Shown: positions 28,626-54,220, counted from the first letter of the stretch. The stretch: 64,000 nt of DNA from Candidatus Saganbacteria bacterium (GCA_026387835.1 JAPLKZ010000013.1:89254-153253), one strand, 5' to 3'. Notes: a model not told the origin generated them from the letters alone. Numbers and translations are program-made.

Positions 28626-28670
28626 AAAATTCAGTGAAATTCCCAATATTTCCATTCGATACATATATAG
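28626..28670 (+). promoter_or_regulatory. conserved upstream element (copy 3 of 3), AAAATTCAGTGAAATT-N15-CGATAC-N2-ATATAG
   Basis: Same architecture as 3515-3558; ends 26 nt upstream of ATG 28697. Confidence 0.4.
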
Positions 28671-28696
28671 ATGAAAATACCGAAAGGAGAAAAGTG

Positions 28697-29359
28697 ATGA
28701 ATAATATTAGAGGGATCATGCGTGGATGGACAAACGAAGGAAGACCGGCAACATGGGCGAATGTAAGAAATGCAATAGCGAATCAGACCGCGTGTTCTGT
28801 GGTTGTATCATCAGGATTGGGGCCGATCTTATCGCTTACAAGGCGGAGGGTGGAAGAAGGCCCCGTACAAAAACTTGCGCGGACTGCAACCCCTGCTTTT
28901 GATGTGGCAAAGTTCATGGAAGCCCACAATTTTATCGATGTTCCCGAAAGACCTTTTAGAATAATGGCAGACGAGCTTTCGGTAGGGCTATTCAACCGAT
29001 TTGTTAAAAGCACACAATACGAAATTATAGGCCATAATGCGGATTCTTTAAAAGGAGTTCTTGCCGGAACAGATCGACGCAGTATAGCAACATATTTAAG
29101 CTGGAATGACGGCACGGCTTATGCTAAATGGCTGAGCGCAGTAACTGGCAAAAGCATTATGCTTCCAACAGAGAAGAAATGGTTAGACGCCGTTGACAAA
29201 GTCCGAGATCAACTATCTGGGAACAATTGGGAATGGACGAAAACCCCATATTCCAGCAACGCCTTTGTTCTCCATCACCTGAACAATTCGCTCCGTTTCA
29301 ACTGCATCCCTGGGAATCGTTTTAACTTCAATGCGGTCCGTCTTGTTGAGGACAAATAA
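28697..29359 (+). CDS. DGR target-type protein with FGE/C-type-lectin-like fold and Asn-rich C-terminal VR-like segment
   Basis: Motifs ...LSWNDGTAYAKWLS...LPTEKKWLDAV...GNNWEWTKTP...NSLRFNCIPGNRFNFNAVRLV; RBS aaaggagaaaag; GTG at 28634 is an alternative upstream start. Confidence 0.65.
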   Translation: MNNIRGIMRGWTNEGRPATWANVRNAIANQTACSVVVSSGLGPILSLTRRRVEEGPVQKLARTATPAFDVAKFMEAHNFIDVPERPFRIMADELSVGLFNRFVKSTQYEIIGHNADSLKGVLAGTDRRSIATYLSWNDGTAYAKWLSAVTGKSIMLPTEKKWLDAVDKVRDQLSGNNWEWTKTPYSSNAFVLHHLNNSLRFNCIPGNRFNFNAVRLVEDK

Positions 29360-29429
29360 ATTATCCTTTGCTCTTTTATTCTTTTACTCTTTGAGTGGGA
29401 TGGGGTGGCCAGGAGTTTGAGGGAAATAA

Positions 29430-29768
29430 ATGGAAGGTCCAAAAGTTATAACCTTGGCCTATGATTTCATAAAATGGGCCATTCCTCATATTGTGAAGTT
29501 TCCAAGAAATCAAAGATACACGCTTGGGGAACGGGTTGAAAACAAACTATTCTTCCTTCTGGAACTTCTCATTGAAGCTCAGTATTCTAAAGACAAAGCT
29601 AATGTGCTTAAGAAAGCGAACATGGAAATTGAGCAGACACGATATTTATTCCGTTTATGCCATGACTTGCGGCTGATCAATTTAAAAACCTACGAATTGT
29701 CTTCAAGGCAGTTGATGGGAATTGGGGCGCAGGTCGGGGGATGGATCAAGCAGCAAAATACCAAATGA
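29430..29768 (+). CDS. avd: DGR accessory variability determinant (four-helix-bundle, 23S rRNA IVS protein family)
   Basis: 112 aa; family-typical N-terminus (LAYDFIKWAIPHIVKFPRNQRYTLGERVENKLF); stop overlaps the RT start (ATGA). Confidence 0.75.
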   Translation: MEGPKVITLAYDFIKWAIPHIVKFPRNQRYTLGERVENKLFFLLELLIEAQYSKDKANVLKKANMEIEQTRYLFRLCHDLRLINLKTYELSSRQLMGIGAQVGGWIKQQNTK

Positions 29769-30397
29769 AGCGCCACGGTTATTTATTCGATAAGATCACT
29801 TCTTTTGAAAATCTCTTAAAAGCCTCACGAAAAGCTCAGAGGGGTAAACGCTTCAAGAATTCCACGGCCGAATTTAACTTAAAAATAGAGTCCGAACTGC
29901 TGGAACTGCAAAGAGAACTGCAAGAGGCAACTTATCGAATAGGCAGCTATAAACAATTCTACATTTATGACCCAAAGAAACGGTTAATCAACGCCTTGTC
30001 TTACAGAGACAGGGTTGCTCAGCATGCTTTATGCAATGTTATCGAGCCGATATTCGATAACGGATTAATTTATGATAGTTACGCCTGCAGGAAAGATAAA
30101 GGCAGCCATAGGGCTGTCAGCCGGTTTGCGATGTATTGCCGCAAGAATAAATATGCCTTGAAGTGCGACATTAAAAGCTATTTTGCCTCAATAGATCACG
30201 GCCTCTTGTTTGACATGATCATGAAAAAAATTAAAGACCCGGATGTAATACAGCTGATTAACTTGATCCTTGATTCAACCCCTTCTCCCGGAATTCCAAT
30301 CGGGAATTTGGCCAGCCAAATATTCGCCAATCTTTATCTTAACGGACTTGACCATTATTTAAAGCAACCTTCGAGATTGAAATCGACCCCCGCTTAG
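29765..30397 (+). pseudogene. DGR-type reverse transcriptase, 3-prime truncated (N-terminal about 210 aa only)
   Basis: N-terminal RT motifs (MKRHGYLFDKI, YIYDPKKRLINALSYRDRVAQHALCNVIEPIF, DSYACRKDKGSHRAV, QIFANLYLNGLDHY); ORF stops before the YxDD active-site region. Confidence 0.75.
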
Positions 30398-39370: not shown

Positions 39371-40681
39371 ATGGGCGAGATGGCCACAAGCGGAGGAGGC
39401 ATCCATCCGGGTGCGCCTATAATATGGCCCACATTAAAACCCACTTCTTCTTCGCAGTCTCAAAGCCAGCAAACGCAGACGACCCAGACAACGGAGCAAT
39501 CTTCGACGACATCTACGGCGCAGAGCAGCAGCCAGGCTGCCGCAACATCGCAGTCATCTGCTGTCTCTCAGTCGGCGACCTCATCGGTCACAGTGACGAG
39601 CTCAGCTTCACCTCAGGTCAGGGAACTCACCGTAAATGACATAAAAACCCATCTATTGTCTTTGCAGCTCGTAGATTCCGAAACAAACGTAAAACTGGCC
39701 TCACTGATGCTCAGGTTCGGCATCGAACTAAGCAGGGAAAATTTTGTAAAAGCCCTGGGGATGCTGGAGGGGACCGATAAATCGCTGAGTACCCAGGAAT
39801 CAGCCCTTGTCCTATTGTCAAAGGGCATCACTGGGTCAAAAGAGGCTTTGACGATGCTCTCATCGCACCTGGCAGAGACTCCTGCGATCAGCAGCCAGCT
39901 TTCCTCTATCAAGAGCGCGATGAACCAGCTTTCCGGAGTCCTGGCATCCAACCAGGCGCTTCTTTCACCGGTGATGGTATCCCAGCTGGCCGCCTTGCTG
40001 GCTCAATTCTCCGATGTGATCGAAGGGCTGCCAAAAAAATATAAATTCGGCAGTGAGAGCACGAATTCCATCGGAAGGGATGACCTGATAAATGATGTAA
40101 GAGCGTTAAAATCCCTGCTCGACGGTGTCCAGGAGAAAAACCTGTCGCAGGAAAACAAGACGACATCCGAAAACGAGGTTTTAAGATCAACAATGATGAC
40201 GACTGCAAAAAAACTTGAAGGCCTTTTGGACAACCTTCTTTCGCAGGTCATTCTGAGCAAGAAATCCGCTGACGGTCAGCTGGGCAAGCAGGATTACCTT
40301 TATTATCAGATACCCAACAGCCTTGCGGACCCGGTAAAGACGATAGACCTTATCATCAAGCGCGATCCAAACAGCAAAAACGCGGTGAACCCGGAAGATA
40401 CGCAGATGGTGATAGGTCTTGAGACAGAGAACCTGGGCAAGATGGTGATAGCTGTGACCCTGAAGGATAAATCAGTTAAGTTCCTTTTTAATACGGAGGT
40501 CGAAGCGACCAAAAAACTTGTCGATGAACAAAATATATTGATAAAAGAGACTCTCTCAGACAAAGGATATCATGTCGAGAATGTCTCTTCCCGCGTCAAT
40601 ACATCGATGTGCATAATCAAGCCTTACCTGATCCCGCTTCTGGGGCTTGACCATCTGTTCAGGATAGACAGTACTATTTAG
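39371..40681 (+). CDS. putative flagellar hook-length control protein (FliK-like)
   Basis: 436 aa; Ser/Thr/Gln-rich N-terminus and C-terminal Flg_hook-like segment; followed by an FlhB-C-like gene. Confidence 0.5.
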   Translation: MGEMATSGGGIHPGAPIIWPTLKPTSSSQSQSQQTQTTQTTEQSSTTSTAQSSSQAAATSQSSAVSQSATSSVTVTSSASPQVRELTVNDIKTHLLSLQLVDSETNVKLASLMLRFGIELSRENFVKALGMLEGTDKSLSTQESALVLLSKGITGSKEALTMLSSHLAETPAISSQLSSIKSAMNQLSGVLASNQALLSPVMVSQLAALLAQFSDVIEGLPKKYKFGSESTNSIGRDDLINDVRALKSLLDGVQEKNLSQENKTTSENEVLRSTMMTTAKKLEGLLDNLLSQVILSKKSADGQLGKQDYLYYQIPNSLADPVKTIDLIIKRDPNSKNAVNPEDTQMVIGLETENLGKMVIAVTLKDKSVKFLFNTEVEATKKLVDEQNILIKETLSDKGYHVENVSSRVNTSMCIIKPYLIPLLGLDHLFRIDSTI

Positions 40682-40695
40682 ATCGGAAACGGAAA

Positions 40696-41061
40696 ATGGC
40701 CGAAAAAAAAGAAGCAGGGCCGGAACAAAAACCCGACATCGAATTGATCCCGGCGGAAAAAAAACGCACAGCCGTCGCATTGAGATATGATATCGAAAAA
40801 GACGCGGCCCCTCTTGTCCTGGCTTCGGGAAGAGGTCTCGTCGCCGATGAGATCCTCAGGATCGCTGAAGAGAACGAGATCCCCCTTTACGAAAATCCGC
40901 GGCTTGCAGATATACTTTCAAAGCTTGAGCTTGATACACAGATACCTCAGGAGATGTACATACTTGTGGCCGAGGTCCTCTACTTTGTCTATCAACTGGA
41001 CAGGATGGCGGAGAAAAGACAAAATCTGGTAAAAAAGATAAAAGATGAGACAAAAAAGTAG
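40696..41061 (+). CDS. FlhB C-terminal domain-like small protein
   Basis: 121 aa; ...AVALRYDIEKDAAPLVLASGRGLVADEILRIAEENEIPLYENPRLADIL...IPQEMYILVAEVLYFVY. Confidence 0.7.
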   Translation: MAEKKEAGPEQKPDIELIPAEKKRTAVALRYDIEKDAAPLVLASGRGLVADEILRIAEENEIPLYENPRLADILSKLELDTQIPQEMYILVAEVLYFVYQLDRMAEKRQNLVKKIKDETKK

Positions 41062-41143
41062 AGGACAGACTTACTGATCAGCCGTTTTGACACCCCTCGC
41101 CCCCCCTAAAAATAACGCCCTTTAAAAACAAACAAAAAAGTTC

Positions 41144-41171
41144 TTGAAATTTTGCAACGCTTGTGTATAAT
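41144..41171 (+). promoter_or_regulatory. near-consensus sigma-70 promoter (TTGAAA-16 bp-TATAAT) upstream of flgF
   Basis: Hexamers at 41144-41149 and 41166-41171. Confidence 0.5.
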
Positions 41172-41213
41172 ATATAACAAATGATAGATACAGAAATGAG
41201 GGCGGAATAATTA

Positions 41214-41972
41214 ATGCCTGACCGGATATTATCAATAGGGCAAAGTGCTCTCGAGAGCTCTGACGCAAAAGTCAAAGCGATGATGAATAATATCGTCAAT
41301 GCCCAGACGCCGGGCTATAAAAAGTCAGATGTTTCTATAAAATCTTTCCCGCTGATGCTGGAGAACGAGACGCAGTCGCTTGAATCAGGCGGCCGTTCCG
41401 GAGCGATGATGCCCAAGGTGACCGGAGTATTCCGCGATCAGGCTCACGGTCCGATATTCAAGACCGGCGGAGCAACGGATGCGGCAATAGGAGGCGACGG
41501 ATATTTTGTCCTCCAGGGAAACGAAGGCGAGGTCTTTACAAGGGACGGAAGGTTCACTCTTGACCAGGACGGGAAGCTTATCAGTATTTCCGGAAAATAT
41601 CCGGTCCTCGGAAAGAGCGGCCCTATCGTGGTGATCCCGGGATCAAGTATCGCGATCTCACAGAACGGAAGTGTTCTTGTAGATGATGTACAGGTCGACA
41701 TGCTCAGGGTCGTGGTATTTAACGACCCTAAAAAGCTCGAACCGATAAATAATTCGCTTTTTAAAGCATCTTCTATTGATGAAGCGACATACGAGGAAGA
41801 TGATAACCCGCGGGTCATACAGGGCTATATCGAATCTTCGAACGTGAGCATCATGGACGAATACATGGAAATGATATTGTTAAGCAGGATGTATGATGGA
41901 AATACAAAGATCATTCAGTCTAGAGATGCAGCGTTGGCTAAGGCCATCGAGCTTGGAAAACCGGCACAATGA
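41214..41972 (+). CDS. flgF: flagellar basal-body rod protein (FlgF-like)
   Basis: 252 aa; N-terminal rod motif (NNIVNAQTPGYKK) and C-terminal rod motif. Confidence 0.7.
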   Translation: MPDRILSIGQSALESSDAKVKAMMNNIVNAQTPGYKKSDVSIKSFPLMLENETQSLESGGRSGAMMPKVTGVFRDQAHGPIFKTGGATDAAIGGDGYFVLQGNEGEVFTRDGRFTLDQDGKLISISGKYPVLGKSGPIVVIPGSSIAISQNGSVLVDDVQVDMLRVVVFNDPKKLEPINNSLFKASSIDEATYEEDDNPRVIQGYIESSNVSIMDEYMEMILLSRMYDGNTKIIQSRDAALAKAIELGKPAQ

Positions 41973-42006
41973 TAAATAGCAGGATAACAAAGGGAGGATA
42001 ATAAAT

Positions 42007-42813
42007 ATGTTCCAGCCATTATACGTGGCCGCGACCGGGCTTAACACTTTCGAGGATGAAATAACCGACATCACAAACAATCTCGCAAATTCCAAGACAG
42101 TCGGTTTCAAAAAGGGGCGGACTGAAAAAGAAAGCCTTTTTGTCATGGAAAAGAATTTCTCGTCGCATTTAAATGAAGCGATAAGAAGGCAGCAGGAGGA
42201 AGGGGTAGGGACAAGCGCGGTCGAGTTCGGTACCGGAGTCAGGGTCGTTTCCACCCCGAAGGACTTTACCCAGGGCACTATTGAGACGACGAACAATCCT
42301 ACAGATATTGCCATATCGGGGGAAGGTTTTTTCCAGATAAGTATGCCTGACGGCAAGATAGCCTATAGCAGAGCAGGAGGCTTCCATGTTGACAGCGATG
42401 GTAACTTCGTAGACCCGAACGGCCATTTGTTGGACCCGCCGGTGATATTGCCGCAGAATACGACAAGCATTCTTATAAAGGAAAACGGCATGGTGTTTGT
42501 TTCGATAAACAACTCGATAGACCTCACGGAAGTAGGGCAGATAAATCTTGCAAAGTTCACAAGTCCCGCCGGACTGAAAAGCCTCGGACAAAACCTTTAT
42601 GAAGAGACGACAGCGTCGGGGTCTCCGATGATCGGACTGCCTACTCAGGAAGGATACGGATCGTTGCAGCAGTCGGCGCTGGAACAGTCAAATGTGGACG
42701 TCATTTCGGAAATGATGAGAATGATAATGGTCCAAAGGGTTTTTGATACAGTTACAAAAGCCGTGCAAACCTATGATGCGATGCTAACATCCGTAGAAAG
42801 GATGAAGGCGTAG
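42007..42813 (+). CDS. flgG: flagellar basal-body rod protein FlgG
   Basis: 268 aa; N-terminal NNLANSKTVGFKK, C-terminal rod heptad region. Confidence 0.8.
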   Translation: MFQPLYVAATGLNTFEDEITDITNNLANSKTVGFKKGRTEKESLFVMEKNFSSHLNEAIRRQQEEGVGTSAVEFGTGVRVVSTPKDFTQGTIETTNNPTDIAISGEGFFQISMPDGKIAYSRAGGFHVDSDGNFVDPNGHLLDPPVILPQNTTSILIKENGMVFVSINNSIDLTEVGQINLAKFTSPAGLKSLGQNLYEETTASGSPMIGLPTQEGYGSLQQSALEQSNVDVISEMMRMIMVQRVFDTVTKAVQTYDAMLTSVERMKA

Positions 42814-42837
42814 AAAGATGAAGGGCTAATCAACGGG

Positions 42838-43554
42838 ATGCTTTTAAAAAAGTCATCAACGCTATTGGTTTTTGGTATACTTTTATTAGTATTGCCTTGT
42901 TTTGCTGCTATGTCCGTAGAAGAAAATATTTCGGAAGCGGTAAAAAATGAGATTGTCAGAAGAAACCAGGCGTTGGAAGACAGCAGGATCGATGTCGGGT
43001 TCAAAGATCCTGATGCGATCTTTGAGGGCCTGACAAGTAAAAAAGAAAAATTGACTTACAAAATAGGTATTCCGGAAAATAGAAGGCTTTCGGGAAATTT
43101 AGTGATACCTGTAAATGTCTATGCCGGCAGAAACTTTATTGAACAAGTAAACGTCAATTGTTCAATAAAAATATTCAAAAAGATATTGGTCAGTTCGGCG
43201 AAGATAAACAAAGGAGCAATATTGACTGGGAAAGAGATGTCTTTGATCGAGAAGGATATTTCTGTCCTGCCCTCGACAGTCATATTTGAGCAGGACAGCA
43301 TACTGGGCAAAGAGGCTATGACTTTTATTCCTAAAGGGACAGTCCTTCTCGACTGGATGTTCAAGGAGGTCCCTGTCGTGAGGAAAGGCGATATCGTAGA
43401 ACTTTATAAAGCGGTTTCGGGTGTCAATGTAAGCGTGAAAGCGGTCGTGCTTGAAGACAGCTATCTGGGTAAAAACGTCAGAGTGAGGAACCTGTCTTCG
43501 CAAAAGACGGTGGAGGGCATTGTCAGAAGTTCAAAAGAAGTAGAGGCATTATGA
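42838..43554 (+). CDS. flgA: flagellar P-ring assembly chaperone FlgA
   Basis: 238 aa; signal peptide and C-terminal SAF-like domain. Confidence 0.65.
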   Translation: MLLKKSSTLLVFGILLLVLPCFAAMSVEENISEAVKNEIVRRNQALEDSRIDVGFKDPDAIFEGLTSKKEKLTYKIGIPENRRLSGNLVIPVNVYAGRNFIEQVNVNCSIKIFKKILVSSAKINKGAILTGKEMSLIEKDISVLPSTVIFEQDSILGKEAMTFIPKGTVLLDWMFKEVPVVRKGDIVELYKAVSGVNVSVKAVVLEDSYLGKNVRVRNLSSQKTVEGIVRSSKEVEAL

Positions 43555-43922
43555 TATTCAGGCAGATGTTAAAAGCAAAGATCCACCGCTTGACGGTCAC
43601 GGAGTCAAGGCTTGATTATGAGGGAAGCATAACGATAGACAAAACCCTGCTGGAAACTTCAGGGATAGTCGAATCGGAAAAAGTACATGTCGTGAATGTC
43701 TCGACCGGAGACAGGTTTGAGACATATGTAATGACCGGAAAAAAGAATTCGGGGATCGTATGCCTGAACGGAGGAGCCGCAAGGATGGGAAGTCCGGGAG
43801 ATCTCATCATCGTCATCTCGTATGCCGCAGTAGATGAAGATTCCCTTTTGAAGTATTGTTCCAGGAAAGTTCTGGTGGACGGTAAAAACAGGGTCAAAAG
43901 GATCATACAGGAGAAAAAATGA
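43551..43922 (+). CDS. panD: aspartate 1-decarboxylase (pyruvoyl-dependent)
   Basis: 123 aa; KIHRLTVTE...YEGSITID with Gly-Ser self-cleavage site, VHVVNV, GIVCLNGGAAR; ATGA overlaps with both flgA and flgH. Confidence 0.9.
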   Translation: MIFRQMLKAKIHRLTVTESRLDYEGSITIDKTLLETSGIVESEKVHVVNVSTGDRFETYVMTGKKNSGIVCLNGGAARMGSPGDLIIVISYAAVDEDSLLKYCSRKVLVDGKNRVKRIIQEKK

Positions 43923-44524
43923 AAAGGATACTGTCTTTCATTTTGATCGCCGCAGTTTTTTCTCAGTTGGCCGTGCCGGCATTGTCGGATTCTTTGTGGA
44001 ACGAAAACAGTTCTTCTTTATACGCGACGCAGAAACCGTTCAAACCGGGCGATATCATAATGGTTATTGTCGTGGAAAATACTTCTGCTGCCCAGAAAGC
44101 GGGCACGGATACGTCAAATCAGGACAATCTGAGTCTCAGCTTTACACACACGATCAACAAACTGACGCAGTATTTAGGTCCGCTGGGTACGCCTCAATCA
44201 CTATCGGGTCAGGCGTCCTCAGCTTATAAAGGATCAGGCGACACTTCCAGGTCAAACAATGTTCTTGCCGTCGTGACCGCAACAGTCCAAAATGTTCTGC
44301 CGAACGGGAATGTTGTTATTTTTGGCACACACAAGGTGACTGTAAATGAAGAAATTCAGGAGGTATTGATCAAAGGAATCGTGAGGCCGGCGGATGTAAC
44401 GAGCTGGAATACGGTATATTCATTTCAAGTTGCGGATTCGACCGTTTCAGTTAAAGGTACCGGTACTGTCGATGAAGCCTCGTCGCCGGGGGTTGTCAGG
44501 AGAGTGCTTAATTGGATATTCTAA
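43919..44524 (+). CDS. flgH: flagellar L-ring protein FlgH
   Basis: 201 aa; signal peptide; FlgH-like sequence. Confidence 0.75.
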   Translation: MKRILSFILIAAVFSQLAVPALSDSLWNENSSSLYATQKPFKPGDIIMVIVVENTSAAQKAGTDTSNQDNLSLSFTHTINKLTQYLGPLGTPQSLSGQASSAYKGSGDTSRSNNVLAVVTATVQNVLPNGNVVIFGTHKVTVNEEIQEVLIKGIVRPADVTSWNTVYSFQVADSTVSVKGTGTVDEASSPGVVRRVLNWIF

Positions 44525-45720
44525 GCAAAATGACAAGAAAAATATCTGTGGCAGTCCTTTTTACGGTGCTAGTCGTGACAGTCTCCTCATTTGCCGCGTC
44601 TCCGTCCGTAAGGATAAAAGACATCGCAACAATAGACCAGGCGCGCGAGAACCAACTTATAGGATTCGGGCTTGTAGCGGGGCTCCGGCAGTCAGGGGAC
44701 AGCCAGCAGACCGAGTTTACAAAACAGGCGATAGCAAATCTTCTATCCCGCATGGGGATGTCTCCCCCGTCGCCCATAACAAGCTCAACGTCACGATCAC
44801 TTACAAATCTATATAATTTTTCAACGATCCCTAAATCGCAGGAATACAGGTCAAAGAACGTCGCCGCAGTGATGGTGACTGCTACGCTCCCTCCGTTCAT
44901 GAAACCGGGGCAGAAAATAGATGTAACCGTGGCAAGTATAGGGGACGCCGCTAGCCTTAAAGGCGGCAACCTTCTGGCAACGCAGCTGCTGGGGATGGAC
45001 GGTCAGACATATGCGGTGGCGCAGGGGCCTGTCTCTCTGGGCGGGGTCAGCGATTCGAACTTTTTACCTTTCAGAACGGATATAGCTACAACGGGAAGAG
45101 TTCCCGGGGGAGGGCTGGTCGAAAAGGAGATCCCCGTCAGTATTGAAGAAGAGCTGGCTCAGACAGACACGGCTGAAGCCTCCAGTTCGATCACGGGGTT
45201 CAAAATACTTTTGAACGAACCTGATTTTACGACAGCTTCAAGAGTTGCATACACAATAGCGAAAGAAGGCATCGATGTCCAGGCCCTTGATGCAGCTTCG
45301 ATAATGGTCAGGGTCACTCCGGGAGATGACGCGATATCACTTATCTCAAAGATCGAAACACTGAGGGTCATTCCTGACGTGAAAGCAAAAATTGTGATCA
45401 ACGAAAGGACCGGCACGATAGTGATCGGCGAAAATATCAGGATCGCGCCGGTAGCCGTCACTTACGGGAATTTCACCGTGACAATAGGGCCGGCATCTCT
45501 TACGTCAGGATTGAGCGAGACAGGGGGCATTCCTTTATCTTCAACGAATGTAATGATAAAGGAAAGCAATAAAAAACTTGTCATCTTGAAGGAATCCGCG
45601 AATTTATCAGACCTTGTGAGATCGCTGAACTCGATAGGAGCCACTCCAAAAGACCTGATAGCTATCATTCAGGCTATAAAGCAATCCGGCGCATTGACCG
45701 CCGACCTGGAGATCATGTGA
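44512..45720 (+). CDS. flgI: flagellar P-ring protein FlgI
   Basis: 402 aa; signal peptide; carries a Ser/Pro/Thr-rich insertion of about 25 aa. Confidence 0.85.
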   Translation: MDILSKMTRKISVAVLFTVLVVTVSSFAASPSVRIKDIATIDQARENQLIGFGLVAGLRQSGDSQQTEFTKQAIANLLSRMGMSPPSPITSSTSRSLTNLYNFSTIPKSQEYRSKNVAAVMVTATLPPFMKPGQKIDVTVASIGDAASLKGGNLLATQLLGMDGQTYAVAQGPVSLGGVSDSNFLPFRTDIATTGRVPGGGLVEKEIPVSIEEELAQTDTAEASSSITGFKILLNEPDFTTASRVAYTIAKEGIDVQALDAASIMVRVTPGDDAISLISKIETLRVIPDVKAKIVINERTGTIVIGENIRIAPVAVTYGNFTVTIGPASLTSGLSETGGIPLSSTNVMIKESNKKLVILKESANLSDLVRSLNSIGATPKDLIAIIQAIKQSGALTADLEIM

Positions 45721-46043
45721 TGGATAATTTTATCCCGCCGGTGATCTTTAATCGCAACAGCGCGTACACCGGCAGCGTCACGCAGCCCGGTCCGGTGCAG
45801 GGCGATGCCGTGACGGCGGTCTCTTCGCTGTTTTTGCAGACCATGCTGAAAGAGATCTATAAAAACCAGTTTAAAAACGAACTTTTTACGACGGAAAACA
45901 ATCCATCATCCTCGGTTTTTTCCGATATGTTCGTAGAACAGATGATAAATGAGATGGCAAATGCCGATACTTTCGGACTTAACAAGATGATCTCTTCGGC
46001 GATTGAGCCGCGGGATGTAATAGAGGAAAGCAAATGCCCGTAA
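45717..46043 (+). CDS. rod-binding protein (FlgJ N-terminal domain-like)
   Basis: 108 aa; position between flgI and fliA and rod-binding-like sequence. Confidence 0.5.
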   Translation: MMDNFIPPVIFNRNSAYTGSVTQPGPVQGDAVTAVSSLFLQTMLKEIYKNQFKNELFTTENNPSSSVFSDMFVEQMINEMANADTFGLNKMISSAIEPRDVIEESKCP

Positions 46044-46783
46044 GACCGAAACAAGAATCGTTAAAACAGCAACAGCCTTACAGGCCTGCCATGGCCATGG
46101 AGGCGTACCTGCCGCTAGTCCATTCGATAGCGGCTATGATCTCAGGGAAAGGCCTCCCGCCGAACATAGATTATAACGATCTTGTAAGCGACGGCACTAT
46201 AGGGCTGATGAAAGCGTGGGATAATTTCGATCCTAAAAGGGGGGTCAAGTTCGAGACTTATGCTTCTTACAGGGTCAGGGGCGAGATACTGGACGGGCTC
46301 AAATATTACAATCCCGTTCCTTACAGGATACAGGTGATGATAAGGGACCTTGCGAAAAAAGGATACGACACAATACTAAAACGCGGCGAAAAAGAGTCCG
46401 GCATCTCGACAAAGGATTCAAAGCTTCTCGAAAAAAAGAGCCTCAGCGAGTCGGAATTCAAAGCGGCTGTCACAAAGATCCAGAAGATAGTATCTGCTTC
46501 GGCTTTGATGTACCTTGTTTCACTGGAACAGGCTTCCGATTCTTCGGAGATCCAGGTATCCGGAGAAAGGACCCCTGTCGAGGAGCTTGAATCCAGCGAT
46601 CTTAAATTAAGGCTTGATAACGAGATAAAAAGCCTTCCGAAGATGGAACGAACGGTGCTCGAACTTTTTTTCAAAAAAGGCCTTAGCCAGAAGGATATTG
46701 CAAAGGACCACAAACTGTCAAGAAGCAAGGTCAACAGGCTTATCGCGAGGGCAATAAACAGGCTGAAGGAAAAGTTGAAATAG
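46034..46783 (+). CDS. fliA: flagellar sigma factor (sigma-28, FliA/WhiG family)
   Basis: 249 aa; sigma-70 region 2 and region 4 HTH. Confidence 0.75.
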   Translation: MPVRPKQESLKQQQPYRPAMAMEAYLPLVHSIAAMISGKGLPPNIDYNDLVSDGTIGLMKAWDNFDPKRGVKFETYASYRVRGEILDGLKYYNPVPYRIQVMIRDLAKKGYDTILKRGEKESGISTKDSKLLEKKSLSESEFKAAVTKIQKIVSASALMYLVSLEQASDSSEIQVSGERTPVEELESSDLKLRLDNEIKSLPKMERTVLELFFKKGLSQKDIAKDHKLSRSKVNRLIARAINRLKEKLK

Positions 46784-46792
46784 GGCATAAAT

Positions 46793-47086
46793 ATGGAAAT
46801 ATTCGATCCTACGATGTCAAATATTGAAAGTGCGATGGCGAGGAGCATAAAGATCCAGGAAGTTACCGCGCACAATATCGCCAACGCGCAGACGCCCGGC
46901 TTTACGGCTAAAAAATTTGACGAGGTACTGAACAAAGCCGTCGAGCGCGAAGAAAATAAAACAGTGAATCTGGAAGAAGAAATGGCCGAAATGGCGAAGA
47001 ACAACACCAGGTATTCGACATATGCAAAACTAATGTCGGCAAAGCTCGCCGTGCTGAGAAATGTGATATCGCAGGGGAGAAAATAA
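46793..47086 (+). CDS. flgB: flagellar basal-body rod protein FlgB
   Basis: 97 aa; N-terminal rod motif HNIANAQTPGF. Confidence 0.8.
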   Translation: MEIFDPTMSNIESAMARSIKIQEVTAHNIANAQTPGFTAKKFDEVLNKAVEREENKTVNLEEEMAEMAKNNTRYSTYAKLMSAKLAVLRNVISQGRK

Positions 47087-47089
47087 GAC

Positions 47090-47530
47090 ATGGGATTAAA
47101 CAGCGCGTTGGATATCTCTGTTTCCGCGATAAACGCCGAACGGCTTCATATGGAGCTTATAGCAAGCAATATCGCAAATATCAATACTACGAAGACCGTT
47201 GACGGGGGCATCTACAGGAGAAAGGTGCTTTCCTATACGGAAAAACCGGTAACGTTTGAAGATGTCCTTGCCGGCGCGCAGAAAAAGGCCGAGATAAAAA
47301 CAGGCGGGGGAGTAGATGTGTCCGTTACTGAAGATATGAGCGCCCCTATGCAGAAAATATTCAACCCCGGTCATCCGGATGCCGATGAGAAGGGATACGT
47401 GACGCTTCCGAACGTGTCGTTGTCTACGGAGATGACGGACCTTATATTTGCGGGAAGACTTTATGAGACGAATGTTACGGTCTTTAGCGCGACAAAAAAA
47501 ATGCAAACTGAAGCTCTCCAGATACAGTAA
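47090..47530 (+). CDS. flgC: flagellar basal-body rod protein FlgC
   Basis: 146 aa; SNIANINTTKT and GYVTLPNV motifs. Confidence 0.85.
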   Translation: MGLNSALDISVSAINAERLHMELIASNIANINTTKTVDGGIYRRKVLSYTEKPVTFEDVLAGAQKKAEIKTGGGVDVSVTEDMSAPMQKIFNPGHPDADEKGYVTLPNVSLSTEMTDLIFAGRLYETNVTVFSATKKMQTEALQIQ

Positions 47531-47543
47531 AGGAGACCGATAA

Positions 47544-47894
47544 ATGGCTGAAGGCATAAGCAGGATAGACCCGAATTTGCTGGCCCAGATCATGGGGCCC
47601 GAGACAACTCCTGCCGCCCCTGAAGTGGGCCAACCGTCAGCGGCATCCCCCGAGATAAAATCCTCCGGCATGACGTTCGACGATATCTTAGGTAAAGCCG
47701 TTAATGCGCTTGACGGGGTGAGCAATGTCGAGAACGATGCGAATTTAATGATGGAAAAATACATGAAAGGCCAGGTCGACGTATCGGACGTCATGATAGC
47801 CACGGCGAAGATGAACATTGCGGTCCAGCTTGCGGTGGCTACCGTCACTTCCGCCGTGAACACGTTCAAAGAAATAACTCAGATGCAGATCTGA
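47544..47894 (+). CDS. fliE: flagellar hook-basal body complex protein FliE
   Basis: 116 aa; C-terminal FliE motif. Confidence 0.75.
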   Translation: MAEGISRIDPNLLAQIMGPETTPAAPEVGQPSAASPEIKSSGMTFDDILGKAVNALDGVSNVENDANLMMEKYMKGQVDVSDVMIATAKMNIAVQLAVATVTSAVNTFKEITQMQI

Positions 47895-47910
47895 TAAAAA
47901 GGAGTGATCG

Positions 47911-49518
47911 ATGGGAGAGGCCAGAGCCCCGGGAAGAATGTCGGACACTAACAGGAATCTTATTATTTCGACTTCTGTTGTAGTGGTCGTTTCGCTTATA
48001 GTCCTGCTGGTGTTCTTCAGGTCGTGCGGCTTGTACGACAGGAATGCAGGTTATAAAGTTATCTACTCCAATCTCGACTTGAAAGATGCCGCGAACGTCG
48101 TCACCGTCCTTAAGGTCATGAAGATACCTTACCAGATAAGGGATGACGGCCGTACTGTAGCGGTCCCGAAAGACAAGGCCGATGACGCGAAGCTGGGTCT
48201 CGCGGAAAAAAATCTGCCTACGGGCGGGTCGGTAGGATGGGAGATATTTGACCAGTCAAAGCTGGGGACCACCGATTTTGACCGAAGGGTACAGTTTGTA
48301 AGAGCGATTTCGGGAGAGCTTGCGAGGACGATAATGAGGATAGATGCGGTACTGGATGCAAGGGTGCAGATAGTCATTCCTCAAACCTCACTTTTTGAGG
48401 TGGCAAAAGCTCCTGTCACGGCTTCAGTCCTGCTGCAGCTTCGTACCGGAAGAAAGATTTCCCGCGAGCAGGTTAACGGGATAGTATACCTTGTCGCGAG
48501 CAGCGTGGAAAATCTAAGACCGGAAAACGTCATAATAGTCGATATCTACGGCAACATCTTAAGCGGCCCCGGTGTGGGTTCCGTGGAAGCCAATGTCGTC
48601 GCCTCGCCTGTCACAGAGCAGATGTATATCGCCCCGACACAAGAAGTTGCGGAAAAAGCTCCGGTAAAAGAGATCTTGATCTCAAAGACCGTGCCCACAG
48701 GAATAAAAGAGACGGCAGCCATAGCTCAGCTCGCCGCCACAAAAGAGACAGAGACCATTTCTTTGCCGCAGAAGAAACTGACCGTCGAAGAGAAAGTGGT
48801 CGTGAAGTTCAAGGCAAAGGAAGAATTCGAGAACATGCTCTCCAGCAAGGTCCAGAAAGTTGTGAATAATTTTTATCCGCCGAACAGCATCCTGGTGAAA
48901 GTAAATGTCGACCTGGCGGAATATAAAGAAAGCCCGAAAAAACACACTGCAACTGCGGTAAAAGCAAAAAAACATGTCATTTCCAGCATGGAGAACGGCA
49001 AAAAACCAGTCCCGTCAAAAATGTTGACGGAAGATAATATCAAGAAGATGACCGTCATAGTCCTTGTGGACAACAGGTTCAATCTTACAAAACAGCAAAA
49101 AAAGACTACTTATGAGATGATAGGCAACGCGATTTCATACCACCCCAGCAGGGGGGACAGGATCATTTTAAGGCAGGTCCCGTTCCATTATGCTACAGCC
49201 TTTCAGCCGGGAATGATGCAAAAAGGATCTGCATCTAAGATGGAAAGTAAGAGATCACTTCCGGAAAAAATGATCTCACTACTCGGCCAAAACACTGCGG
49301 TGTCAGTTTTGGCGGCGTTGTTTATCTTCCTTTTGGCGGTGCTGGCCGCGAGGACATTTTCGAGAAGAAGGTCTTTGGAACAGGAAGCCGAGGAGATGAG
49401 CGAACCGGATGAAAGAATGAGGACAGCTTCTTCGGCGATAGAGCAGATAAGGACAGTGGTCGCGCAGTCTCCAGACCGCGTGGCGGAGCTCATGAAAAAC
49501 TGGCTGAGCGAAAAATAA
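47911..49518 (+). CDS. fliF: flagellar M-ring protein FliF
   Basis: 535 aa; N-terminal TM, periplasmic ring-building motifs, C-terminal TM and FliG-binding tail. Confidence 0.85.
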   Translation: MGEARAPGRMSDTNRNLIISTSVVVVVSLIVLLVFFRSCGLYDRNAGYKVIYSNLDLKDAANVVTVLKVMKIPYQIRDDGRTVAVPKDKADDAKLGLAEKNLPTGGSVGWEIFDQSKLGTTDFDRRVQFVRAISGELARTIMRIDAVLDARVQIVIPQTSLFEVAKAPVTASVLLQLRTGRKISREQVNGIVYLVASSVENLRPENVIIVDIYGNILSGPGVGSVEANVVASPVTEQMYIAPTQEVAEKAPVKEILISKTVPTGIKETAAIAQLAATKETETISLPQKKLTVEEKVVVKFKAKEEFENMLSSKVQKVVNNFYPPNSILVKVNVDLAEYKESPKKHTATAVKAKKHVISSMENGKKPVPSKMLTEDNIKKMTVIVLVDNRFNLTKQQKKTTYEMIGNAISYHPSRGDRIILRQVPFHYATAFQPGMMQKGSASKMESKRSLPEKMISLLGQNTAVSVLAALFIFLLAVLAARTFSRRRSLEQEAEEMSEPDERMRTASSAIEQIRTVVAQSPDRVAELMKNWLSEK

Positions 49519-49531
49519 TGACGGAGTCAAA

Positions 49532-50065
49532 ATGGTCTTAACTGGAAGAGAAAAAGCGACGATATTGTTATCGTTATTGGGCGCCGACCTGTCGGCGCAG
49601 ATACTGAGAAGCCTGCCTCCCGATATGGCGGACCTTATTGCTTCGGGAATAAACAATCTTCCGAACCCGTCTTCGGATGTAATATCGTCCGTACTCGAAG
49701 AGTTCGCGTCTTTTATTGCTCTTCCGGATGCTTCTCAAAAGAGAGGGATCGAACAGCAGGCATCTGCCAGGAGCACTCAGGCACCGCCAAAAGCGAACAG
49801 AAGCCCGTACGACACCCTTTTTTATTCCAAACCGAAAAAAGTGGCCATGGCACTTTCAGCAGAAAGATCGTCCGTCACTGCGTTCGTAATGTCGATGCTC
49901 CCGGCCGTGCAGGCAAGGGATGTTTTGGCATTCATGCCGGACAGGAAAAATGAGATCGAAGATATCATGAGAGACCTAAGGCAGACCCCGATGTCAGAAA
50001 AGGTCAAGGAAGACGTAATCGCGATACTGGCTGAACGGATCGAAAGGATGTATTCGGAAGGTTAA
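49532..50065 (+). CDS. fliG: FliG-like protein, short (177 aa)
   Basis: N-terminus GREKATILLSLLGADLSAQILRSL resembles FliG N-domain; ORF ends 6 nt before fliH. Confidence 0.55.
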   Translation: MVLTGREKATILLSLLGADLSAQILRSLPPDMADLIASGINNLPNPSSDVISSVLEEFASFIALPDASQKRGIEQQASARSTQAPPKANRSPYDTLFYSKPKKVAMALSAERSSVTAFVMSMLPAVQARDVLAFMPDRKNEIEDIMRDLRQTPMSEKVKEDVIAILAERIERMYSEG

Positions 50066-50070
50066 ATATT

Positions 50071-50817
50071 ATGGCATTGATAAAAAGATCGCAAGTCATT
50101 GAAAGAGGTTGTATAGACCTGAAGACAGAGGTCCCTGCCATCAGGCAGCAGCCGTCGGCCGATTTTTCCGGGGAAGAAGCGCAGGCTTTTGAAGAGATAA
50201 AAGAAGAGATCGTTTCTCATACAGTGGATGAAGCTTATGAAAAAACAGGGGAGATAATCGCCCAGGCCCAGGCAGAGGCCAAAGAGCTATTAAAAAAGGC
50301 CAATCAAGAGGCGGAGACCCTGTTCTTAAGGACAAAGGAAGAAGCGGTGCAGGCGGGCAAGGCCGAAGGCGAAGCCAGCGTGAGCGAGAACATAACCGCT
50401 TCGCTTGAGACACTGAACAACGCGATAAAGGAAAGAAAAAGGATCATCAAGGATTCGGAAGGGGAGATCCTGCGGCTTTCACTGAAGATAGCGGAACAGG
50501 TGATAAGAAGCGAAGTGTCGCTGCACAAGGATGTGGTGATGAACATCGTGGCCGAGGCGGTGAACAAGGTCAGCGACAGGGAGAATGTAATAATAAAGGT
50601 CAACAGGGAAGATGCCGAGCATATAAAAAAATACAAGGACAGGCTGTCAGGGATAGTGGATGGCGTGAAAAACCTTTCTATAATAGAAGACAGCCAGGTA
50701 GAACCCGGAGGCTGTGTTATCGAGACGAATCTCGGGTTTGTCGACGCGCGCGTCAGCACAAAACTCTCGCTGATAGAGCAATCGCTTATGAAGGCGCAGG
50801 CAAGTGTCACAGAATAA
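50071..50817 (+). CDS. fliH: flagellar assembly protein FliH
   Basis: 248 aa; coiled-coil N-terminal half and C-terminal FliH motif. Confidence 0.7.
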
Positions 50818-52153
50818 TTCTCTCCAGGAAAACACTTCTTTGATAGATTTTGAAAAATACCACAAAGCCGTAGAACGTTCCGAAGGAATAAGGGTCATCG
50901 GAAAGGTCATCCAGGTCGTCGGATTGATCCTTGAGGCGCAGGTGCAGGGGGTCTCAATAGGAGACCTCTGTATCATCAGGCTGAATAAGGGAAACGCCGA
51001 TGACATCAGGTATGGGGAGGTCGTCGGATTCAAGGAAGGAAGGGTCCTTCTGATGCCGCTCGGCACGACCACGGGGATATCTCCGGGTTCCGAAGTCCTT
51101 GCCGCGGGACATCCTCTGATGGTAAAAGTAGGCCAAGGGCTTTTGGGCAGGGTGCTCGGAGGTCTGGGAGAGCCTATTGATGATAAAGGCCCTTTGATAA
51201 CCGAAGAAGAAAGGCCTCTTGACGCCGATCCTCCGGACCCGGTGAAAAGACCGAGGGTGACGGAAATAATCAGGGCCGGGATCCGGGCGATAGACGGGCT
51301 GCTTACTTTGGGAAGAGGGCAAAGGATCGGGATCTTTGCCGGTTCAGGAGTGGGTAAATCGACGTTGATGGGCATGCTCGCGAGGAACGCGGAAGCGGAT
51401 GTAAACGTCATAGCGCTCATCGGAGAGCGCGGAAGAGAAGTAAGGGATTTTATCGAGGAATCGCTGGGAGAAGAGGGCCTGAAAAAATCCGTCGTAGTGG
51501 TGGCGACATCGGACCAGCCGCCTCTGGTCAGGCTAAAAGCGTCTTTTGTGGCTACGGCTATAGCGGAATATTTCAGGGACCAGGACAAAAAGGTCATCTT
51601 CATGATGGATTCGGTGACGCGCTTTGCGTACGCGCAAAGGGACGTGGGGCTGGCGTCCGGAGAGCCTCCCACGACGAGAGGTTATACTCCGTCGGTCTTT
51701 GCGATGCTGCCGAGGCTTATGGAAAGGTCAGGCACGGCGGAGATAGGTTCCATCACCGGACTTTACACCATACTTGTCGAAGGAGATGATTTCAACGAAC
51801 CTATAGCCGATCAGTCAAGGAGCATTCTTGACGGCCATATAATACTGTCCAGGGCGCTTGCGGCAAAGAACCATTATCCGGCGATAGATGTGCTTCCGAG
51901 CGTGAGCCGGTTGATGTCTAACCTTGTTTCGGATGAGCACAAAGAAGCGGCCGGAAAGCTCAGGGAGGTTCTGGCGCGCTACAGCGAAGCCGAAGACCTC
52001 ATCAATATCGGTGCTTATGTAAAAGGGTCCAACCCGAAGATCGACGAGGCGATCGCAAAGATCGACGCGGTCAACGAATTCCTCAAACAGGGCACTTTTG
52101 AACAGGTAATGTTCGAGGACATGCTTGACCAGCTCCTTTCAATATTTTACTGA
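50804..52153 (+). CDS. fliI: flagellum-specific ATP synthase FliI
   Basis: 449 aa; Walker A GSGVGKST. Confidence 0.9.
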
Positions 52154-52165
52154 TACAATATAATT

Positions 52166-54220
52166 ATGGCAAAGACCAACTTTTTACTTGAGATAGGAGT
52201 GGAGGAAGTGCCGGCAAGGTTCCTTGACGGGGTGCTTCAAAGCCTCTGCGAAAACGTAAAAAAGGCGCTCGAAGAACGCCGCGTCGGCTTTGACGCGATA
52301 CAAGTTTGCGGGACGATGAAAAGGCTGGTGCTTTTTGTCGAAGGCATTTTGGAAAAACAGCAGGACATGATGTCCGAAGTTAAAGGCCCGCCCAAGAAGA
52401 TCGCGTTCAACCCGGACGGCACAGCCACAAAAGCCGCTTTGGGATTTGCCGCTTCGCAGGACCTAAAACCAAAAGACCTTATTGTCAGGCAGACAAATGA
52501 AGGAGAGTATGTTTATGCCGTCAGGAACGAAAAAGGCATCAGCACTAAGAAAGTGCTTACAGACGTTATCCCGAAGGCAATACTCTCCATCCACCTGCCG
52601 ATATCGATGAAATGGCAGGACGGCGACATTTCTTTCATAAGGCCCATACATTATATTATGGCGTTCCTGGGCAAAGACCCGGTGAGATTTTCGGTAGGAA
52701 AAATATCCGCGTCAGACAAGACTTTGGGACACAGGTTTTTGTCGGACTCTGTGATGCACGCCTATAATGGCGGCGCCGATCTGCAAAAATTCGAAGAATT
52801 TCTTGAAAAACTCGGGGTCATGCTGGACCGGGAAAAAAGAAAAAGCCGGATAATCAAGGGCATAAAAAACCACGAGGAACGGACCAAGGAAAAAATATTC
52901 GCGGATGAAGACCTGATAAATGAAGTCTCAAATATCGTCGAATATCCGCAGGTGCTTGAAGGCAAGTTCGACAGGCAGTTCATAATGGTCCTGCCGCAGG
53001 ACGTGATCTATACGGTCGTGAAGAATCAGCAAAAATGCTTCCCTGCGCAGCAGAGCGGGTCCTTTTTGATCGTTGCCGACGGCGTGAAAGAGAAAGAGAT
53101 AATATCAGGTTACGAGCAGGTCGTGAACGCGAGGCTGCACGATGCCAAATTCTTTTATGACGAGGACGTGAAGATACCGCTCGACAAGAACATCGAGAAG
53201 ATGAAGAAGATCGTCTACCACGAAAAGATAGGGAGCATGTGGGACAAGACACGTAGGATCGTAAAACTATCCTGCTGGCTTGCGGCTCAGCTCACCGATA
53301 ACAAGGAGACGATCGCCCAGGTAGAGAGGGCCGCGGAGCTTTCAAAAGCCGACCTTGCAACGCATATGGTCGGCGAGTTCTCCAGCCTTGCCGGTGCGAT
53401 GGGCAGGGAATACAGTCTTGTTGCCGGTGAGGATATTCGGATAAGCCGCGCGATATATGAACATTATCTTCCCAGGTTCGCGGGCGATGCGGTCCCTACG
53501 GAGGTCCAGGGAGCGGTAATAGGGATAGCCGACCGGATGGATTCGATCGCATCCTGTTTCGCGGCGGATATTATCCCGACCGGGTCGGTAGACCCGTACG
53601 GGTTGAGAAGGGCGGCATCAGGCATCGTCTCCATAATGATGAAAAAAAACATCGGGATACCGCTTTCAAAGCTGGCCGAAAAAAGCATGGAGATCCTGAA
53701 TATATCGGATGCCGGCAAAAAAGGCAGGATCATTGATTTCATAAAACAAAGGTTAAAAGTCGTGCTTGAAGGGGAAGGTGTCAGATATGATGTCTGTGAT
53801 AGTGTCCTTGCGATCTCGGACGATCTCATCCCCGCGTACTGCAAGGCGTTCGAAATAATGAAAGCACTTGAAGATGCCTGGTTAAAGGCAGTGATCCTTG
53901 CTGCGGACAGGATAAACAGGATCGTCGGGGACGCCAAGACTTCAAATATCGATACCGAAGCATTCACGCAGAGTGAGGAAAGGGAACTTTACAGGAACTA
54001 TTGCCAGATAAAAGATATTGTAAAGGAACATCTTTCGGGAAAAGAATATGCCAAGGCCCTTTTTGACTATAAGGTCATGACAAGGCCGGTCGACGTGTTC
54101 TTTGAAAAAGTCCTTGTGATGCACCAGGATGATAAGGTCAGGGCTAACCGCCTGGCGCTTTTAAACGGTGTAAAAAGTCTCTATATGATGTTCGCTGATT
54201 TTTCAAAGATCGTTATTTAA
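52166..54220 (+). CDS. glyS: glycyl-tRNA synthetase beta subunit
   Basis: 684 aa; GlyS-like N-terminus (LLEIGVEEVPARF); no glyQ adjacent. Confidence 0.85.
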   Translation: MAKTNFLLEIGVEEVPARFLDGVLQSLCENVKKALEERRVGFDAIQVCGTMKRLVLFVEGILEKQQDMMSEVKGPPKKIAFNPDGTATKAALGFAASQDLKPKDLIVRQTNEGEYVYAVRNEKGISTKKVLTDVIPKAILSIHLPISMKWQDGDISFIRPIHYIMAFLGKDPVRFSVGKISASDKTLGHRFLSDSVMHAYNGGADLQKFEEFLEKLGVMLDREKRKSRIIKGIKNHEERTKEKIFADEDLINEVSNIVEYPQVLEGKFDRQFIMVLPQDVIYTVVKNQQKCFPAQQSGSFLIVADGVKEKEIISGYEQVVNARLHDAKFFYDEDVKIPLDKNIEKMKKIVYHEKIGSMWDKTRRIVKLSCWLAAQLTDNKETIAQVERAAELSKADLATHMVGEFSSLAGAMGREYSLVAGEDIRISRAIYEHYLPRFAGDAVPTEVQGAVIGIADRMDSIASCFAADIIPTGSVDPYGLRRAASGIVSIMMKKNIGIPLSKLAEKSMEILNISDAGKKGRIIDFIKQRLKVVLEGEGVRYDVCDSVLAISDDLIPAYCKAFEIMKALEDAWLKAVILAADRINRIVGDAKTSNIDTEAFTQSEERELYRNYCQIKDIVKEHLSGKEYAKALFDYKVMTRPVDVFFEKVLVMHQDDKVRANRLALLNGVKSLYMMFADFSKIVI

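Follow-up and report, generated by a model that had tools for sequence, protein, structure and literature searches.

What is FliG for when the half of the protein that generates torque is absent? The question is raised by a locus in the genome of a Candidatus Saganbacteria bacterium, of which we analyzed a stretch of 64,000 nucleotides (GCA_026387835.1, JAPLKZ010000013.1:89254-153253), hereafter the window. To our knowledge, the C-terminal domain FliG_C is the rotor face that takes torque from the stators and is present in all characterised flagellar motors. An earlier note on this DNA had placed a protein of 177 aa, about half the normal length, at the FliG position. The ORF proved to be as described (49532-50065, plus strand), and Pfam agreed with the order fliE, fliF, short ORF, fliH, fliI. 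The results below identify the ORF as a truncated FliG-family variant and not a canonical FliG.

The flagellar genes form one plus-strand cluster (39371-52153; Table 1), and the rest of the window carries housekeeping genes. Approximately 10 kb downstream of the window contained housekeeping genes only, and the flanks of the cluster in other genomes were likewise housekeeping. The short fliG starts 13 nt 3' of fliF, and fliH begins 5 nt after it. These gaps leave no space in which a remnant of the C domain could be hidden. When 40 E. coli flagellar and chemotaxis proteins were compared by phmmer with all window ORFs of at least 40 aa, no fliM, fliN, motA, motB, flhA, fliPQR, flgD/E/K/L or fliC/D/S was found. 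Pfam scans of the long ORFs were also negative for motAB and fliMN, so that their reported absence from the window stood. The export gate (FlhA/FlhB/FliPQR) was found neither in the window nor within ±10 kb of the cluster in 37 genomes.

Table 1. Features of the window. Positions are counted from its first nucleotide; residues refer to the short FliG.
Feature	Position	Strand	Remarks
FGE-sulfatase/C-type-lectin-fold protein	28634-29359	+	diversity-generating-retroelement (DGR)-like module
bAvd	29430-29768	+	DGR-like module
Short reverse transcriptase, 218 aa	29741-30397	+	DGR-like module
FliK-like protein with Flg_hook domain	39371-40681	+	overlooked by KO annotation
FlhB C-terminal-domain-only paralogue, 121 aa	40696-41061	+	TIGR00789 flhB_rel; without NPTH site
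flgF	41214-41972	+	distal rod
flgG	42007-42813	+	distal rod
flgA	42838-43554	+	
panD, embedded in flagellar operon	43551-43922	+	Pfam Asp_decarbox, 150 bits
flgH	43919-44524	+	L/P rings
flgI	44512-45720	+	L/P rings
FlgJ-like, rod-binding domain only	45717-46043	+	
fliA, sigma-28-type	46034-46783	+	
flgB	46793-47086	+	proximal rod
flgC	47090-47530	+	proximal rod
fliE	47544-47894	+	proximal rod
fliF, MS-ring protein, 535 aa	47911-49518	+	Pfam YscJ_FliF, YscJ_FliF_C
Short fliG	49532-50065	+	ATG start, 177 aa; FliG_N and FliG_M, without FliG_C
N-terminal four-helix ARM-like domain, predicted FliF-binding	49544-49717	+	residues 5-62; FliG_N
Variable Pro/Ser/Ala/Gln-rich linker	49721-49792	+	residues 64-87; predicted disordered, pLDDT <50
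Middle ARM_M domain and one long C-terminal helix	49805-50059	+	residues 92-176; FliG_M, pLDDT about 79-95
fliH, 248 aa	50071-50817	+	Pfam FliH, NCBIfam
fliI, type III export ATPase	50804-52153	+	glyS directly 3'

Several other features of the window were observed. panD lies between flgA and flgH and overlaps both by a few bases. The same insertion was seen in the related loci L001, L002, L004, L005, L007, L008, L013 and L035 and in Riflemargulisbacteria (L044, 3665-4018); it is common to distant members of the phylum and missing from most deeper Saganbacteria loci. The FlhB C-only protein begins after the NPTH autocleavage site and resembles a cleaved FlhB_CC fragment. Together with the adjoining FliK-like protein it could possibly form a stand-alone substrate-switch pair. 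Outside the flagellar cluster, a module resembling a diversity-generating retroelement occupies 28634-30397 on the plus strand. No template/variable repeat pair of at least 40 nt was found between 27000 and 31500; a degenerate module would explain this, as would repeats diverged beyond the reach of the repeat search.

The domain content of the short FliG was examined with Pfam and NCBIfam profiles. Residues 3-73 matched Pfam FliG_N at 49.4 bits (cutoff 25; profile positions 2-72 of 104), and residues 101-172 matched FliG_M at 44.8 bits (cutoff 25). The Pfam scan gave no match to FliG_C. The N-terminal likeness to FliG_N that had been noticed earlier therefore held, and the protein contains the middle domain as well, not the N domain alone; full coverage of the three FliG domains was absent. 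The equivalog model TIGR00207 reached 41.2 bits against a cutoff of 226.7 and ended at profile position 188 (9-188 of 338), compared to 507 bits for E. coli FliG. Profile-profile comparison aligned the short FliG family with residues 3-153 of enterobacterial FliG, and a profile search of the PDB agreed. Alignment to a FliG N+M profile extended to about residue 184 in the numbering of E. coli FliG. The short protein stops where the torque-generating C-terminal domain of canonical FliG would start, as had been suspected.

We also searched for a C domain encoded nearby. A FliG_C profile was made from 54 full-length FliGs (53 retrieved sequences and that of E. coli) and scored 154 bits with E. coli FliG as positive control. 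Across 787 kb, comprising the window and all related loci (±10 kb of the cluster in 37 genomes), its best match had an E value of 0.73. The N+M profile found every short FliG, with scores up to 105 bits. We did not file the protein as a canonical FliG, since it fails on the C domain, on the equivalog score and on the EHPQR/R160 motif considered below. The NCBI record of the exact protein, from a Candidatus Saganbacteria MAG (locus tag NTZ10_07335), reads 'hypothetical protein'. Most short FliG homologues carry the same label at NCBI, so that FliG and FliK are under-reported in flagellar inventories of the phylum.

A short ORF of this kind could arise if a normal fliG were split by a frameshift introduced in sequencing or assembly. 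Such an error was not the cause here, since the identical ORF recurred in independent assemblies and the short form is kept across the phylum. The ORF and its neighbours were found unchanged on 13 contigs, and nine places among the matches listed represent nine separate sequencing runs. The 5 nt gap to fliH leaves no space for the missing part, and FliG_C was found in no frame. The chance that an artefact explains the short gene is negligible.

All 39 word-indexed homologues, with identities down to 36%, were short and contained the N and M domains only. None exceeded 185 aa, and with the exception of a record of 103 aa that is flagged as partial, their lengths ranged from 147 to 185 aa. A similar picture emerged when 1.84 billion cluster representatives were searched exhaustively by HMM: all matches above about 70 bits were at most 188 aa long (roughly 60 clusters at 50% identity), and full-length FliGs (317-343 aa) began at 68 bits, aligning over their own residues ~1-185. 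In total, about 90 short homologues of 149-188 aa were collected, with identity down to ~35% and 23 invariant alignment columns. When one genome was scanned for each GTDB species, 37 loci with a short FliG were recovered, one of them on a curated complete 1.67 Mb genome. Wherever a taxon name was given it was Margulisiibacteriota, Saganbacteria or WOR-1; eleven of the 37 were labelled 'bacterium' only. Saganbacteria and their relatives are sister to Cyanobacteria. Gene order was identical and FliG measured 149-188 aa in all loci long enough to show them, and about 15 neighbouring flagellar genes were intact and syntenic in 37 species. One apparent FliF-FliG fusion, a 643 aa ORF in locus L025, was rejected as a data artefact that arises from a masked N run over the junction (about 6100-6110).

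In a neighbour-joining tree of 164 shared columns, the 88 short sequences and the 54 full-length FliGs fell without exception on opposite sides of one split, which lies on a short, non-bootstrapped branch. The conserved short form and the single split indicate that the truncation is old, that it probably happened once and that it has been maintained by selection. The N+M-only family is a real, conserved and apparently undescribed variant of FliG. We found no description of it in the searchable literature, including work on flagella of Margulisbacteria, Saganbacteria, Margulisiibacteriota and Termititenax. The sole relevant data on Saganbacteria FliG were uncommented rows of a supplementary KO table (PMC6349859).

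The fold of the short FliG was predicted with AlphaFold (AF2) from an alignment of 30 sequences, with a mean pLDDT of 76. The N domain was modeled as helices 5-16, 18-27, 30-40 and 48-62 at a pLDDT of ~70. The linker that follows differs in length and sequence across the family. It stands in place of the second half of canonical FliG_N and the N-M helix, both of which are missing from the short form, as are ARM_C and the torque-helix domain, which make up the C-terminal half. What remains is homologous to canonical FliG, with N and middle domains of the same folds and the same place after fliF. In a Foldseek search of the PDB, the top 21 matches were FliG chains; non-FliG matches ranked below and were weak. 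The N domain model superimposed on 5tdy_D, the T. maritima FliG_N of a FliF_C:FliG_N complex, with an rmsd of 1.1 A over 63 columns. The M domain model superimposed on FliG_M of FliG-FliM complexes at 1.9 A (4qrm_D), 2.3 A (3soh_B) and 3.4 A (4fq0_C). Entries 8umd, 5tdy and 4fq0 are taken by us to represent canonical FliG (Salmonella, T. maritima and H. pylori, respectively).

Most of the 23 invariant columns fall in the N domain (MxLTGREKATILLSLLG...), and its canonical partner is conserved too. The FliF tail motif NPEK[IV]AELLKKWL[ST]E was present in all loci that hold fliF. In the window, the C-terminal tail of FliF reads PDRVAELMKNWLSEK (nt about 49456-49515) and is predicted to form a FliG_N-binding helix; presumably it is one of the amphipathic helices of the kind known to insert into FliG_N. 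The spacing between fliF and fliG ranged from -4 to +19 nt across loci, and the two genes are translationally coupled. These features suggest that the N domain of the short FliG binds the C-terminal tail of FliF. The N-terminal peptide of FliH, M[GA]LIK[RK]..[IL]...G, was likewise conserved in all loci. In Salmonella, the N-terminal end of FliH docks on FliN.

The FliM-contact motif EHPQR of the middle domain gave a different result. Among the 54 full-length FliGs, E125 was present in 54, H126 in 38, P127 in 48, Q128 in 50 and R160 in 49. In the window protein the motif reads E-R-S-S, and R160 is replaced. All nine members of the window's sub-clade (the window and L001-L008) have the E and an Arg for the His; P was retained in two of the nine, R160 in one and Q in none. 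The deeper Saganbacteria clade showed E-R-P-Q in 16 of 20 aligned sequences, without R160. The motif has thus decayed in the sub-clade of the window.

The same sub-clade differs in the position of fliJ. This gene lies directly 3' of fliI in 25 of the 37 related loci and in Riflemargulisbacteria, and in the window and L001-L008 fliI is followed by glyS, not fliJ (52153-52166 in the window). In a lineage-restricted search with a FliJ profile, the best 120 of 424 matches included none tagged NTZ10_ and none that indicated another locus. In the sub-clade, fliJ has been either relocated or lost; its loss would be a further reduction beside the decayed EHPQR motif.

To place the short FliG in the context of whole genomes, we used the flagellar KOs tabulated for 26 Saganbacteria genomes (Supplementary Data 2 of Matheus Carnevali et al. 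2019, PMC6349859). The gene-content argument thus draws on 26 other Saganbacteria genomes, the window's own MAG having been seen as 64 kb plus about 10 kb downstream. Most of the 26 have the export components FlhA, FlhB, FliO/P/Q/R, FliH, FliJ and FliN/FliY, together with FliF, FliE, FlgB, FlgC, FlgG, FlgH, FlgI, FlgA, FlgE, FliA and the FlhB-like K04061 (PMC6349859). FliG (K02410), FliM, FliK, FlgK, FlgL, FliD, FlgM and FlgN were absent from all 26, and chemotaxis genes were mostly absent (PMC6349859). The rows for FliC and FliS are empty for every genome in the table, flagellated ones included, and MotA and MotB are not tabulated (PMC6349859). Neither the short FliG nor the FliK-like protein had been recognized by KO calling, and further absences in the table could likewise be false negatives. 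With the same KO models, however, sister lineages were positive for FliM, FlgK/L and FliD. The uniform lack of these proteins in Saganbacteria is consistent with the missing FliG_C and with the decayed FliM-contact motif. The earlier suggestion of a reduced or repurposed apparatus thus agrees with the KO table and with the decayed motif, though both bear on it indirectly.

These missing functions, the decayed EHPQR motif and the absence of fliJ after fliI in the window's sub-clade are what one would expect if the cluster were being lost and the short FliG were a functionless truncated gene. Against such decay stand the architecture and 23 invariant columns kept across about 90 sequences, the neighbouring genes that are intact and syntenic in 37 species, and the conservation of both the FliF tail and the FliH N-terminus. 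This conservation points to long-term purifying selection, and the reading as a relic is largely refuted; we regard it as very improbable.

A second possibility is that a normal fliG lies elsewhere; the 177 aa protein would then be additional and would regulate the MS ring or act on it as a spacer, for instance by competing for the tails of FliF. The portion of the genome seen, 64 kb and about 10 kb downstream, would leave room for such a gene, and a second FliG may exist in Riflemargulisbacteria (see below). The short gene, however, holds the canonical, translationally coupled place after fliF in every genome, and K02410 was matched in none of the 26 Saganbacteria. We consider an accessory role of this kind quite unlikely.

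The Riflemargulisbacteria complicate the picture. A diverged short FliG of 181 aa (P0077) was found in this group (GWD2_39_127 and relatives, RA1A). The cluster around it is the same and includes panD; genes for FliJ, a CheY-like receiver and a HEAT protein come next. In RA1A (GCA_003242895.1; L044, 13631-15602) the genes directly after fliJ encode the receiver (118 aa), the HEAT-repeat protein (174 aa) and a multi-pass membrane protein of 339 aa; these three genes have no counterpart in Saganbacteria loci. The KO set of Riflemargulisbacteria is full, with FliM, FlgK/L, FliD, FlgM/N and Che, and K02410 FliG was called as 'reliable' in GW1B and GW1C (PMC6349859). GW1B and GW1C share an identical short FliG protein, and a 'reliable' K02410 call in these two genomes indicates that Riflemargulisbacteria probably have a second, full-length FliG. 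They would then have either two machines or a short FliG that works beside a canonical one. Since a short FliG occurs here beside a full motility set, truncation alone is no proof of motility loss, and the truncation either predates the loss of motility genes in Saganbacteria or is independent of it.

This group also bears on whether the flagellum might still rotate. In such a split or dual-FliG rotor, the short FliG would be the half attached to FliF, and a protein encoded elsewhere in the genome, either a FliG_C on its own or a second, full-length FliG, would contribute the torque domain. The Riflemargulisbacteria short FliG adjoins fliF in genomes with the full motility KO set and the 'reliable' K02410 calls (GW1B, GW1C). 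The ARM_M surface left free in the short FliG is the one that stacks on ARM_C in canonical FliG rings, and the FliK-like protein, FliA and FlgE are retained. In Saganbacteria, however, the search of the window and of ±10 kb of the cluster in 37 genomes gave no FliG_C signal, and K02410, FliM, FlgK/L and FliD are missing from all 26 genomes. The FliM-contact motif has decayed in the window's clade. No Margulisbacteria full-length FliG was present among the best-scoring full-length matches with names checked, which belonged to Nitrospirota and Firmicutes. A rotor divided in this way, still turning, seems improbable to us.

A related evolutionary scheme has a slightly better, if still small, chance of being correct. 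Margulisbacteria would have a two-piece rotor, formed by an MS-ring-bound FliG_NM and a separate torque-bearing FliG, and Saganbacteria would be derived, having lost the torque half, FliM and the filament. If this were true, the short FliG would count among the ordinary parts of the rotor and would not be a remnant, and Saganbacteria would represent a free-living, phylum-wide intermediate between the flagellum and a dedicated type III secretion machine.

Our preferred explanation for Saganbacteria, likely if far from certain, is a basal body of flagellar origin that does not turn and is used for type III export, with the short FliG as an adaptor devoid of torque function. Without a C domain there is no charged torque helix for MotA-type stators, so that the protein is most likely a structural adaptor. 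The N domain would clamp or cap the C-terminal tail of FliF, with one short FliG per FliF. The linker-tethered M domain would hang under the MS ring and may serve to dock or space the export platform of FliN and FliH-FliI. In this way the short FliG could stabilise or cap FliF and keep cytoplasmic export components (FliH-FliI and a platform based on FliN) tethered. Rod and L/P rings, and probably also a hook, would belong to this basal body, which would not rotate and may function in type III export or secretion or form a structure at the surface or in the periplasm.

Some findings argue against a non-rotary machine. Saganbacteria still have the FliK-like ruler, the sigma-28 factor FliA and FlgE, which in normal flagella take part in completing the hook and in the switch to late genes. 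Riflemargulisbacteria combine a short FliG with an apparently complete motility set, and the deeper Saganbacteria clade retains E-R-P-Q in the M domain. A non-rotary, repurposed apparatus is nevertheless plausible, on a basis that consists in part of others' KO tables.

Similar export machines have been described in other bacteria. The flagellar basal bodies of Buchnera aphidicola are non-motile and are presumed to be protein transporters; full-length FliG (38 kDa) and FliM are kept. In both Buchnera and Saganbacteria the basal body, rod, rings and a type III export apparatus are retained, in Buchnera without motility. Buchnera, however, is an endosymbiont with a reduced genome, whereas the Saganbacteria hosts are free-living in groundwater and sediment, and in Saganbacteria FliG itself is shortened and FliM apparently lost. 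A greater resemblance was seen to the FT3SS-like system of Lysobacter enzymogenes OH11, whose gene pattern is close to the Saganbacteria KO pattern. FliF, FliN, rod, L/P rings, hook, gate and FliI are present in OH11, and FliG and FliM were not detected. Strain OH11 is non-flagellated, and secretion of FlgD and toxins through this system was demonstrated experimentally. The two differ in that FliG was 'not found' in OH11, while Saganbacteria keep an N+M FliG coupled to fliF, as well as FliH.

By analogy only, the short FliG may also be likened to SctK or the cytoplasmic domain of SctD in injectisomes, a non-torque adaptor that joins the inner-membrane ring to the SctQ/FliN-type platform and to the ATPase complex SctL/SctN (FliH/FliI); the comparison concerns the proposed role, not sequence or fold. 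The window cluster has FlgB/C/F/G, FliE, FlgH and FlgI in place of a secretin and needle, and no secretin or SctD was found in the window. With its flagellar rod and L/P rings, the Saganbacteria system is thus not an injectisome.

The short FliG shows a whole lineage that keeps only the FliF-binding and middle domains of FliG, under purifying selection and in an otherwise intact basal-body operon. Because KO annotation and the 'hypothetical protein' entries at NCBI miss the short FliG, flagellar inventories of these phyla are wrong in both directions. The lineage offers a natural experiment on the non-torque roles of FliG, such as MS-ring assembly and docking of the export platform. Conversion of a flagellum into an export device is a step postulated for the origin of the injectisome, and Saganbacteria are a candidate free-living case of a flagellum turned into a non-rotary export device.
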